Notes under the pieces: generated by a model
Database searches by the model: none
Told to the model about the DNA's origin: nothing
What the model saw: only the letters and a program-made list of their open reading frames with translations
Made by a program: the position numbers and the translations under genes
Source of the DNA: a virus
Taxonomy: Duplodnaviria > Heunggongvirae > Uroviricota > Caudoviricetes
Strand: one strand, 5' to 3'
Virus record (IMG/VR): IMGVR_UViG_3300028549_001428
Length of the DNA stretch: 32,977 nucleotides
Shown: piece by piece, positions 27,230 through 29,559 of the stretch
Layout: every line of letters begins with the position of its first letter
How positions within the stretch are numbered: position 1 is the stretch's first letter

Positions 27230-27845
27230 ATCTACCTCCACATACGCATGGATGTTACTGTAAAGCAATCCAATCAGGAACTACATGTCTACCATTCTCC
27301 ACATACGCATGGATGTTATATAGCCGTGGGTGTGCTGGCTAACGATGCTCCACCATTCTCCACATACTCATGGATGTTACACTCCAGTATTGGTTCCTCA
27401 ATATCGATCTCCACCATTCTCCGCATACTCATAGATGTTACCGATTACTTGTTTATTTGTATCTGTAACTGGGACCATTCTCCACATACTCATGGATGTT
27501 ACTAATCCCATACTTTGCAAACACATCATTCATTACCATTCTCCACCTACGCATGGATGTTACAAAACATAATCTAAGTTATCGCTTGTGTTGTCACCAT
27601 TCTCCACCTACGCATGGATGTTACTGCTTTTGATTCGCTTAGTATCAAATCGTTTAACCATTCTCCACCTACGCATGGATGTTACGATTTTTCTGGGTTT
27701 TTAATTAATTATAAATCACCATTCTCCACCTACGCATGGATGTTACTTCACTCACATATTTATAATTGAACCACACATACCATTCTCCACCTACGCATGG
27801 ATGTTACACCAATATGTAGAGAACTTACTGAGTATATCTACCATT
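27230..27845 (-). CRISPR. CRISPR array 1: 10 repeats of 29 nt (transcribed GTAACATCCATGCGTAGGTGGAGAATGGT), ten 32-nt spacers and an in-phase 6-nt partial repeat
   Basis: Repeats start at 27230, 27291, 27352, 27413, 27474, 27535, 27596, 27657, 27718 and 27779 (exact 61-bp period), and ACCATT recurs at 27840. Degeneracy increases toward low coordinates, consistent with the minus-strand promoter at 28009. Confidence 0.95.
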
Positions 27846-27975
27846 GCTTGTATGTATATAACGGGTCATAGGTTTGCATCCTTTGTATGTTAATTTCCCT
27901 GTTCATAGAGCGTCTATTGACCTACTCTCCGAGGGCTTTTTTTAGAGTCGTGGATAAATGGATACCCTCGACTTT
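27840..27975 (-). ncRNA. Putative scaffold (reRNA/tracr-like) RNA fused to the first guide of array 1
   Basis: Promoter TTGACA (28009-28004)-17-TATATT (27986-27981). Stems CGAGGG/CCCTCG and GTC-AATA-GAC. CCATTTATCCAC is complementary to the repeat 3' end. The RNA ends in AATGGT like the repeat. Confidence 0.7.
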
Positions 27976-27991
27976 ATACTAATATAGAAAA

Positions 27992-29482
27992 TTAAGGTTT
28001 ATTTGTCAATATTTTTATACCTTCTTTTTTGATATTGTGTGAGGCATTGAAATCTCTATCGTGTTGAGTATTGCAATTAGGGCATATCCAGTTACGGACA
28101 TTAAGGTTTTTCACTAGAGGGTTTTTGTAACCGCATACATGACATAATTGAGAAGATGCGAAATACTTATCGATTTTGACGCAGTATTTACCAACCCAAT
28201 TCATTTTATACATTGTAGTTAATTGGAATTTATATATAGCAGCATCAGACAATGCTCTATTGATAGCCTTTTTACTATATGATGGCATTTCGGAATCATC
28301 ATTTATGTTCATATCAGTAACTGATAGAGTTTCCATAGCGACACCATCAATGGATGGGTTTTTTGCTATTTCAGCTACTATGGTATGAATAAATGTATCT
28401 CTGGTATTTTTTATTGTTTCATGTAGGCGATTTATTTCAAGTTGCAATTTTTGATAGTTCTTAGATTGATCCTTACATTTTAGAGGATAACCATTAGATC
28501 CATTGACTGCAATGTTGGAAAGTTTTCTTTGTTTCACCTTTAGTTTATTTAGGAGATGTTTCAAGGGTTTTGGTGGTGTAACGATATTACCATTTGAGTC
28601 GGAGTAATACCTATCACCTATGCCGATATCAATGCCTATGATATTAGCATCTTCTATTGGTTTTGGTGTAGGTACAGGTTGGTTATTTTCCACAAGAATG
28701 GAGGCATAGAATCTATCGGTAGGGGATTTGCTAATGGTGATACTTTTAATTGAAGCATCCTGTGGGATATCTCTACCCTTACAAATTTTGATATTGCCTA
28801 TATCCCATTGTTTTGATTTGAATCGTATATGTCTGGTATCATAGTCGATATAGAATCCGAAATTGATAGAAAATGTAATGGAATCGTTTTTGTTTCTATC
28901 AGACTTAAATTTTGGGAGTCCCTTTAATTTTTTCTTTTTACCTTCTACTGGTGTAGTCAACATTCGCTTTTTTGAAGGTGTAGTTGAAGTTTTCTTTTCT
29001 TTCAGTAATCGGAATAAATTATCTGTTGCTGATTTCGCATGAATACTAGCCTGTTGCAATGCACCACGTTCAAAATTAGCTAATGGGTTAGTAGGCTGGT
29101 TTTTTTTGTACCATTCGATGCAATATGTCATAGCAGCTTCAGCTATATACAACCAGCTTGGTTTAGGATTTCCATTTCTTTTTATAAAGAGTTTTGGGTG
29201 ATACTCGGTATCAGCAACTAGGTCACGCATCCATTGTTTATGTGGATAGAGTAATCCGTCTTTATTGGTTTTGTAAGCAATGAACTTTAATATGTCAAGG
29301 TATTCTTGCTTATCTTCATCTGCCTTTAGTTTTAGAATATGGTTGAAAGGTTCATTTTGAAATCCTGTCATGAATATTTCTAATACTGAATTGTAGTATA
29401 TGGAAGTAGCATTGATACCAAGATCGAAGAATTTGGTTTGATCTTTTGTTGGGAATAGTTCGTGTTTATATGCTTTCAACAT
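27992..29482 (-). CDS. tnpB: TnpB/Cas12f-like RNA-guided RuvC nuclease (496 aa), CRISPR-associated
   Basis: N-terminal TnpB-type KAYK-x-x-L-x-PT, LPKFKS, RuvC-I IGID(285), RuvC-II AME(384), CHVC...CPNC zinc finger and RuvC-III HDRD(477)FNA. Leaderless start 6 nt after TTGACA-17-TATATT. Confidence 0.9.
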   Translation of the reverse strand: MLKAYKHELFPTKDQTKFFDLGINATSIYYNSVLEIFMTGFQNEPFNHILKLKADEDKQEYLDILKFIAYKTNKDGLLYPHKQWMRDLVADTEYHPKLFIKRNGNPKPSWLYIAEAAMTYCIEWYKKNQPTNPLANFERGALQQASIHAKSATDNLFRLLKEKKTSTTPSKKRMLTTPVEGKKKKLKGLPKFKSDRNKNDSITFSINFGFYIDYDTRHIRFKSKQWDIGNIKICKGRDIPQDASIKSITISKSPTDRFYASILVENNQPVPTPKPIEDANIIGIDIGIGDRYYSDSNGNIVTPPKPLKHLLNKLKVKQRKLSNIAVNGSNGYPLKCKDQSKNYQKLQLEINRLHETIKNTRDTFIHTIVAEIAKNPSIDGVAMETLSVTDMNINDDSEMPSYSKKAINRALSDAAIYKFQLTTMYKMNWVGKYCVKIDKYFASSQLCHVCGYKNPLVKNLNVRNWICPNCNTQHDRDFNASHNIKKEGIKILTNKP

Positions 29483-29559
29483 AGTAGTAATATAGAAAAG
29501 GTATGGGATTTTGTCAATGGATTACTATGATTATTTCTCTACCTTAGTATTTTGGTAAG

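Follow-up and report, generated by a model that had tools for sequence, protein, structure and literature searches.

We analysed a 32,977-nt stretch of DNA (hereafter the window) from a phage of the Caudoviricetes (IMG/VR record IMGVR_UViG_3300028549_001428), in which the gene for a 496-residue RuvC nuclease is followed on the minus strand by a structured RNA and by an array of clustered regularly interspaced short palindromic repeats (CRISPR). The locus is most probably a compact, phage-borne type V CRISPR-Cas system whose effector is a recently domesticated TnpB of the IS605 type, that is, a transposon-CRISPR intermediate of the V-U/TranC type. Comparison of loci indicates that the gene, a scaffold RNA of ~170 nt in the position of an omega RNA (reRNA) and the array make up one conserved cassette, which recurs in unrelated phage contexts, and that the spacer content of the array turns over between near-identical strains. 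An earlier note on this DNA had proposed that a TnpB-like nuclease, a scaffold RNA and an array form one such transposon-to-Cas12 unit in a phage, and comparative genomics supports that proposal.

Judged by family models and alignments, the nuclease is an RNA-guided RuvC nuclease of the TnpB superfamily with all catalytic residues and zinc ligands in place. It matches the Pfam families OrfB_IS605 (PF01385) and Cas12f1-like_TNB (PF07282), both above their cutoffs, and reaches 194 bits with the NCBIfam model guided_TnpB (NF040570; cutoff 100). The narrower IS200_TnpB model yields 218 bits, below its cutoff of 425, and the scores with the models for IS607 TnpB, C2c8 of type V-U2 (47 bits, cutoff 350) and Cas12f2 of type V-F (18.7 bits, cutoff 450) also stay below threshold. 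The RuvC triad and zinc finger described as intact in the earlier note are indeed so: D285, E384 and D477 as well as C447, C450, C467 and C470 are invariant in the seven-member clade described below and in an alignment of 69 TnpB sequences that includes 62 ordinary TnpBs. The N-terminal lobe, said to be ~90 residues longer than usual, is likewise confirmed, the protein being ~90-120 residues longer than its TnpB relatives (370-420 residues), which align to the profile from position ~130 onward, i.e. to the C-terminal two thirds. The surplus residues form an enlarged helical lobe at residues 13-165 in an AlphaFold model (predicted local distance difference test score of 90) that otherwise comprises a TnpB core and a disordered lysine-rich linker. 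Structure searches identify the ISDra2 and ISFba1 TnpBs as the closest folds, with template modelling (TM) scores by target of 0.76-0.77, followed by Cas12p, LaTranC, Fanzor2 and Cas12f. The window was also said to hold no transposase, in agreement with the lack of any TnpA family match among the 30 open reading frames (ORFs) scanned against Pfam, which is not an exhaustive set. Inverted repeats flanking the nuclease gene and a second copy of the scaffold were not found in the window either, and the attributes of a mobile IS200/IS605 element (TnpA, element ends and multiple copies) appear to be missing from it.

Proteins of this kind are very rare. A word-indexed search of 5.8 billion protein clusters recovered five full-length relatives with 45-73% identity, all other hits being TnpBs of 370-420 residues that align to the C-terminal two thirds. 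An exhaustive HMMER search of 1.84 billion representatives returned one full-length representative and one N-terminal fragment, and one further member is encoded on a Joint Genome Institute (JGI) contig, amounting to about seven relatives among roughly 15 billion proteins. Seven proteins of 458-496 residues, known from metagenomes only, form one clade on a long stem with a Shimodaira-Hasegawa-like approximate likelihood ratio test support of 100. No relative was found in IMG/VR by protein, by clade alignment or by a 22-nt scaffold word, and the same word is absent from representative prokaryote genomes.

The cassette is recognizable wherever enough flanking DNA is available. Each of the four informative loci (the window, L002, L003 and L005, which overlaps L004) combines gene, scaffold and array, with the conserved adjacency of a TnpB-like effector and a CRISPR array by which type V and TranC systems are recognized. 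The arrangement of the parts varies: in L002 the gene is preceded by a promoter, a scaffold and a four-repeat array and followed by a second scaffold, L003 has its array upstream and its scaffold downstream, and L005 carries a scaffold and an array on both sides. L001, which encodes a protein of 73% identity, has the same two promoters and scaffold as the window, its contig ending inside the scaffold; contigs P0003 and P0004 extend 608 and 220 nt downstream, respectively, without a called gene. Outside the cassette there is no detectable homology between the loci, and their flanking genes are unrelated. All four complete scaffold-array units have 168-170 nt between the scaffold start and the first repeat, and because the cassette recurs at this fixed distance in unrelated contexts, it is very unlikely that a transposon and an unrelated array came together by chance.

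Individual loci have further peculiarities. In L002, positions 3061-3130, upstream of the extra scaffold, resemble both the last codons of the nuclease gene and the promoter (tblastx against window 28043-27888). The upstream cassette is probably the product of a duplicated segment that comprised gene end, scaffold and array. Besides 32-nt spacers, the mini-arrays of L005 (3096-3292 and 1369-1451) include short ones of 17 and 25 nt. The JGI phage contig L004 has an ORF of 1104 residues (1684-4998) lying about 1 kb upstream of its cassette, and this ORF contains 5.8 copies of a 231-nt tandem repeat.

The perfect TTGACA-17-TATATT promoter that the earlier note placed in the last codons of the nuclease gene is present at 28009-27981 and recurs in front of the L001, L002A and L005A scaffolds. 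Its motif class is common in the window, with 20 occurrences against 0.98 expected. The -10 element of the gene promoter is separated from the ATG by 6 nt in the window (29480-29517) as in L001 (371-408), for which reason the nuclease mRNA is probably leaderless. L002, L003 and L005 form a subclade in which no clear promoter precedes the scaffold 3' of the gene; this scaffold may be excised from the 3' end of the mRNA, by analogy with omega RNA.

The scaffold is under strong constraint. Its first ~85 nt are nearly invariant across seven copies, and the scaffold of L001 is conserved more than the L001 protein. Hairpin 1 (AGUCG-GGGYA / loop UCCAUU / URUCC-CGACU) is paired in 100% of the cells of the seven-copy alignment, and two of its pairs have changed on both sides in a compensatory manner (C-G/U-A and A-U/U-G). 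Hairpins 1 and 2 together are paired in 99.3% of cells, compared with 31-44% in slid controls; hairpin 2 is invariant among the copies and therefore uninformative on structure. The 3' domain is more variable, still alignable among relatives and partly complementary to the 3' half of the repeat. An RNA of ~135 nt ending in AAUGGU, as first suggested, does not fit this comparison, since homology with the relatives continues to the first repeat, ~168 nt from the predicted start. No Rfam family matches the scaffold at E values up to 10. The minus strand shows no terminator-like site from scaffold to array, and for this reason transcription should run into the array.

We predict that the scaffold acts like a tracrRNA (trans-activating CRISPR RNA), holding the invariant 3' end of the repeat by base pairing. 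Its pairing partner would be either the hairpin-1 loop UCCAUU, which is free and could pair with the invariant AAUGG of the repeat, or an anti-repeat-like segment of the 3' domain, exemplified by CAUUCU-AUA-CCACAU in L005B opposite AUGUGG-GG-AGAAUG in the repeat. The earlier note had favoured pairing of the scaffold 5' end with the repeat. The complementarity of CCAUUUAUCCAC:GUGGAGAAUGG does exist (-13.8 kcal/mol), but its AUCCAC half is the 3' arm of the hairpin-1 stem, leaving only the loop UCCAUU available. Duplexes of the repeat with the 3' domain reach -19.9 to -21.4 kcal/mol in three relatives, compared with shuffled repeats at about -13 to -15, of which 1-19 in 300 do as well; the older repeat variant of the window gives -18.8 kcal/mol. 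Cognate-specific co-variation of repeat and scaffold was considered and rejected, the duplex energies of cross-locus pairs overlapping those of cognate ones.

A rival reading is that the scaffold is an omega-RNA-like single guide acting in cis, in which either AAUGGU and positions 27808-27839 make a fixed guide, or the scaffold with repeat 1 and spacer 1 is the sole guide, the remainder of the array being used in trans or not at all. Scaffold and array adjoin each other on one strand, uninterrupted by any terminator-like site, the scaffold start keeps its constant distance from the first repeat in the four units, and the post-gene scaffolds of L002, L003 and L005 lack a clear promoter, as would an omega RNA made from an mRNA 3' end; all of this would suit a cis guide. 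So would the hexamer AATGGT at 27845-27840, at a distance of exactly 61 nt from its counterpart in the first repeat, which had been read as a partial repeat in register followed by a 32-nt spacer. The spacing is exact, but the hexamer is missing at the homologous place in the relatives, and among the other positions of the 29 nt that it ends, 5 of 23 match the repeat (manual count). A search for a degenerate 'repeat 0' within the scaffold gave local alignments no better than shuffles and in differing places at each locus. The in-register hexamer is thus best described as a 6-nt match specific to the window.

The supposed spacer does not behave like a guide. Between the window and relatives whose proteins are only 45-48% identical, 22-26 of the 32 positions of 27808-27839 match, whereas pairs of true spacers match at 16.7 positions on average and 22 at most. 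In a near-identical strain, positions 27808-27820 and 27833-27983 are unchanged despite differing spacers, and no target of the segment was found in the sequences searched. Because it is conserved in relatives and unchanged where covered in a strain with different spacers, the segment is, on this comparison, leader or scaffold and not a guide. The suggestion that a first unit with this segment is a natural single guide is not supported, and no significant repeat-like copy was found in front of the segment. A fixed guide would, in addition, leave nine uniform 32-nt spacers with changing content unexplained, and we consider a cis single guide improbable.

In the window array, the five repeats closest to the leader share one sequence, the older ones vary, and the last has a degenerate 3' end, as do the terminal repeats of L003 and L005A. 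The arrays of the relatives are very short (2-4 repeats), and their repeats are likewise 29 nt long and end in GGAGAAUGG. A strain from a public sequencing run that is ~97-98% identical in gene and scaffold differs from the window in its leader-proximal spacers. No protospacers were found in IMG/VR for the three spacers searched there, nor in the window and the loci of its relatives. A host search with two GTGGAGAATGG motifs 46-54 nt apart gave 13 genomic hits and one viral hit, all of them simple GGAGAATGG-type tandem or coding repeats, and therefore identified no host.

A further alternative is that an ordinary selfish TnpB of the IS605 type lies beside an unrelated array that is served by host Cas proteins or by an effector encoded at 31171-32976. 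Repeats of 29 nt and spacers of 32 nt fit type I-E, and a second CRISPR locus only 400 nt away has a repeat sharing the first eight bases except one. Against this stands the recurrent association of gene, scaffold and array, which every one of the four informative loci shows in unrelated surroundings and with a fixed distance from scaffold to repeat. The scanned window ORFs include no TnpA, and the scaffold is single-copy in the window. The invariant 3' end of the repeat differs from that of the second array, and the tracr-like RNA of the second locus matches only its own array. Moreover, the repeat forms a weak 5-bp hairpin instead of a type I stem-loop, and no array with the same repeat end was found in representative genomes of 185,579 species. 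A selfish TnpB next to a foreign array is thus more doubtful still than a cis guide. Least probable of all is that the locus is in decay or that it now serves as a DNA-binding regulator without cleavage activity: nuclease-dead derivatives of TnpB and Cas12 are known (PMC13565253) and the relatives' arrays are short with some irregular spacers, but the RuvC and zinc ligands are all invariant, the window array is perfectly regular with content that differs between strains, and the scaffold is constrained more strongly than the protein.

For the domesticated TnpB of a type V system, we envisage the following mechanism. The promoter in the last codons of the gene would start transcription near 27974 and transcription would continue into the array, so that the tracr-like scaffold and the pre-crRNA (precursor CRISPR RNA) begin as one transcript. 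The guide is expected to follow the repeat on its 3' side, with the invariant repeat end just 5' of the spacer, an arrangement that every TnpB or Cas12 guide has. The nuclease, its RuvC domain being intact, would cut DNA complementary to the 32-nt spacers next to a protospacer-adjacent motif (PAM) or transposon-adjacent motif (TAM). Spacer acquisition probably takes place at the leader end through Cas1-Cas2 whose genes lie in the host or in a different part of the phage, and the likely role of the system is competition with other mobile elements or phages.

Several observations weigh against this interpretation. No Cas1 or Cas2 family was matched by the 30 window ORFs scanned against Pfam (again not exhaustive). 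The 29/32 geometry is typical of type I-E and not of known small type V arrays. Protospacers were not found in GenBank phages, all E values being above 0.5, and targeting, PAM and even array orientation are judged by analogy and from the degenerate terminal repeat. On the RNA side, single-sequence folding beats shuffles weakly (z of -1.5 to -2.0), the comparison includes only four complete scaffold-array units, and the current repeat of the window reaches no more than -14.1 kcal/mol with the 3' domain, a value equalled by 100 of 300 shuffles. The two candidate anti-repeats are mutually exclusive and are not distinguishable here. The transcript ends and processing are predictions, no RNA run containing this DNA was found among the public runs, and the matches in the four runs examined are DNA contigs.

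A more specific scenario would place the locus close to the event of 'RNA splitting' itself. The scaffold would still be continuous with the array, providing the tracrRNA in cis, and the first repeat-spacer unit might be a natural single guide; the cassette would duplicate on either side of the gene and move between phages as one unit, and the 29/32 arrays would be fed by a borrowed adaptation machine. We regard this combination as rather unlikely.

Table 1. Positions of the cassette parts and of other annotated genes in the window
Feature	Position	Strand	Remarks
CRISPR array 1	27230-27807	-	10 repeats of 29 nt, 9 spacers of exactly 32 nt, period 61
Scaffold 3' domain (array leader)	27808-27890	-	Semi-conserved; conserved TTGGT abuts first repeat
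Scaffold 5' domain	27891-27974	-	Hairpin 1, A7 linker, hairpin 2; tracr-like
Hairpin 2	27935-27897	-	
A7 linker	27943-27937	-	
Hairpin 1	27973-27946	-	Loop UCCAUU at 27962-27957
Scaffold promoter	27981-28009	-	Perfect TTGACA-17-TATATT within last codons of nuclease gene
Nuclease gene	27992-29482	-	496 aa; RuvC triad, CxxC...CxxC zinc finger, enlarged helical N-terminal lobe
Gene promoter	29489-29517	-	Perfect TTGACA-17-TATATT directly in front of nuclease gene
Eco57I-type methylase domain	128-1525		
ResIII/DEAD helicase	2906-4723		
C-5 cytosine methylase	13902-14750		
Sigma-70-like factor	14818-15546		

A second CRISPR locus occupies 30233-31166 and 31171-32976 of the window. Its array, also read on the minus strand, has 32-nt repeats and its own promoter at 30961-30933, and appears decayed because its spacers are irregular (21-66 nt). 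A divergent promoter (31008-31036) would drive a predicted RNA with CTCTCA and ATTTCACACAC, the bipartite complement of the 3' end of the array-2 repeat; by eye, this tracr-like RNA ends in a terminator-like hairpin and T run. The adjoining ORF (31171-32976) exceeds 600 residues, runs off the window and has no Pfam or NCBIfam match. The repeats of the two arrays (27779-27807 and 30828-30859) have the common start GT(A/T)ACATC and wholly different 3' parts, the part that would face the effector. Elsewhere in the window, Rfam models identify a group I intron at 10174-10446 (52.8 bits, gathering score 50) and a tRNA gene at 17146-17217. The other genes listed in Table 1 fit an accessory or early region of a large phage.

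Systems of this general kind have been described before, and it is well established that CRISPR arrays have captured TnpB on independent occasions. Altae-Tran et al. (PNAS 2023, PMC10691335) reported 40 candidate V-U branches (V-U6 to V-U45), most of them without cas1, cas2 or cas4 and usually with the array downstream of the gene, where an omega RNA would lie, 15 of which are known only from metagenomes. TranC systems, as summarized in PMC13565253 from Jin et al. (Cell 2025;188:6283), have TnpB-like effectors and a reRNA split into tracrRNA and CRISPR RNA (crRNA). They comprise several clades, including the phage-borne CauTranC9, with repeats of 32-38 bp in clades 3, 9, 11 and 20 (preprint 10.64898/2026.03.27.714800).

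The window locus resembles the V-U6 to V-U45 branches in its TnpB-like protein, its conserved link to an array, the lack of cas1, cas2 and cas4 and, as for many of these branches, its restriction to metagenomes; two of the clade relatives come from JGI metagenomes, a source that was also mined for V-U6 to V-U45 (PMC10691335). It differs in that arrays also occur upstream of the gene, each with its own scaffold copy. The likeness to TranC, as far as that summary describes it, extends to a TnpB-sized nuclease nested among IS605 TnpBs, a small array without adaptation genes, a scaffold where the reRNA would be and carriage of some members by phages, and LaTranC (9jfo/9jfq) is among the top structural matches of the window nuclease. 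In a PDB sequence search, however, ISDra2 TnpB scores higher with the nuclease (105 bits) than LaTranC does (80 bits, C-terminal third only). With 29 nt, the repeats are shorter than those of the four TranC clades named above (32-38 nt), and the scaffold is predicted to be co-transcribed with the array and can flank the gene on both sides.

ISDra2 TnpB (8h1j, 8bf8, 8exa) is the best match in both structure and PDB sequence, with a common core of RuvC and zinc finger, an RNA gene that begins at the 3' end of the protein gene and a guide expected 3' of the scaffold; the window nuclease is also closer to it in sequence than to Cas12n. Unlike ISDra2 TnpB, the window protein has ~90-120 extra residues in the helical lobe, it is accompanied by no detected transposase or insertion sequence ends, and its guides would come from a CRISPR array and not from the DNA flanking a transposon end. 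The scaffold has no evident similarity, by eye only, to the omega RNAs of the nearest TnpBs of Bacillus and Bacillus phages. Cas12f (V-F) is comparable as a miniature, TnpB-derived effector that needs a tracrRNA and is encoded in the order cas12f, tracr, array. It is absent from the PDB sequence matches of the nuclease, and its TM scores by query (0.44-0.55) are weaker than those of TnpB.

Natural examples near the transition from TnpB to CRISPR show which steps came first, and the present clade is small and phage-borne, with a scaffold that occupies the ancestral position and remains contiguous with the array. It would offer a useful natural test case for the passage from an omega RNA to a tracrRNA and crRNAs, and a candidate compact genome editor. 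The current picture is unchanged, as such systems, including phage-borne ones, have already been described. Because the clade is very rare and found only in metagenomes, it is plausible that it represents a rare new lineage of this described transposon-to-CRISPR kind, the comparison with V-U6 to V-U45 and the TranC clades being based on their descriptions and that with LaTranC also on sequence and structure. Some of its traits are unusual, i.e. the 29/32 geometry, the scaffold predicted to be co-transcribed with the array and the presence of cassettes on either side of the gene.

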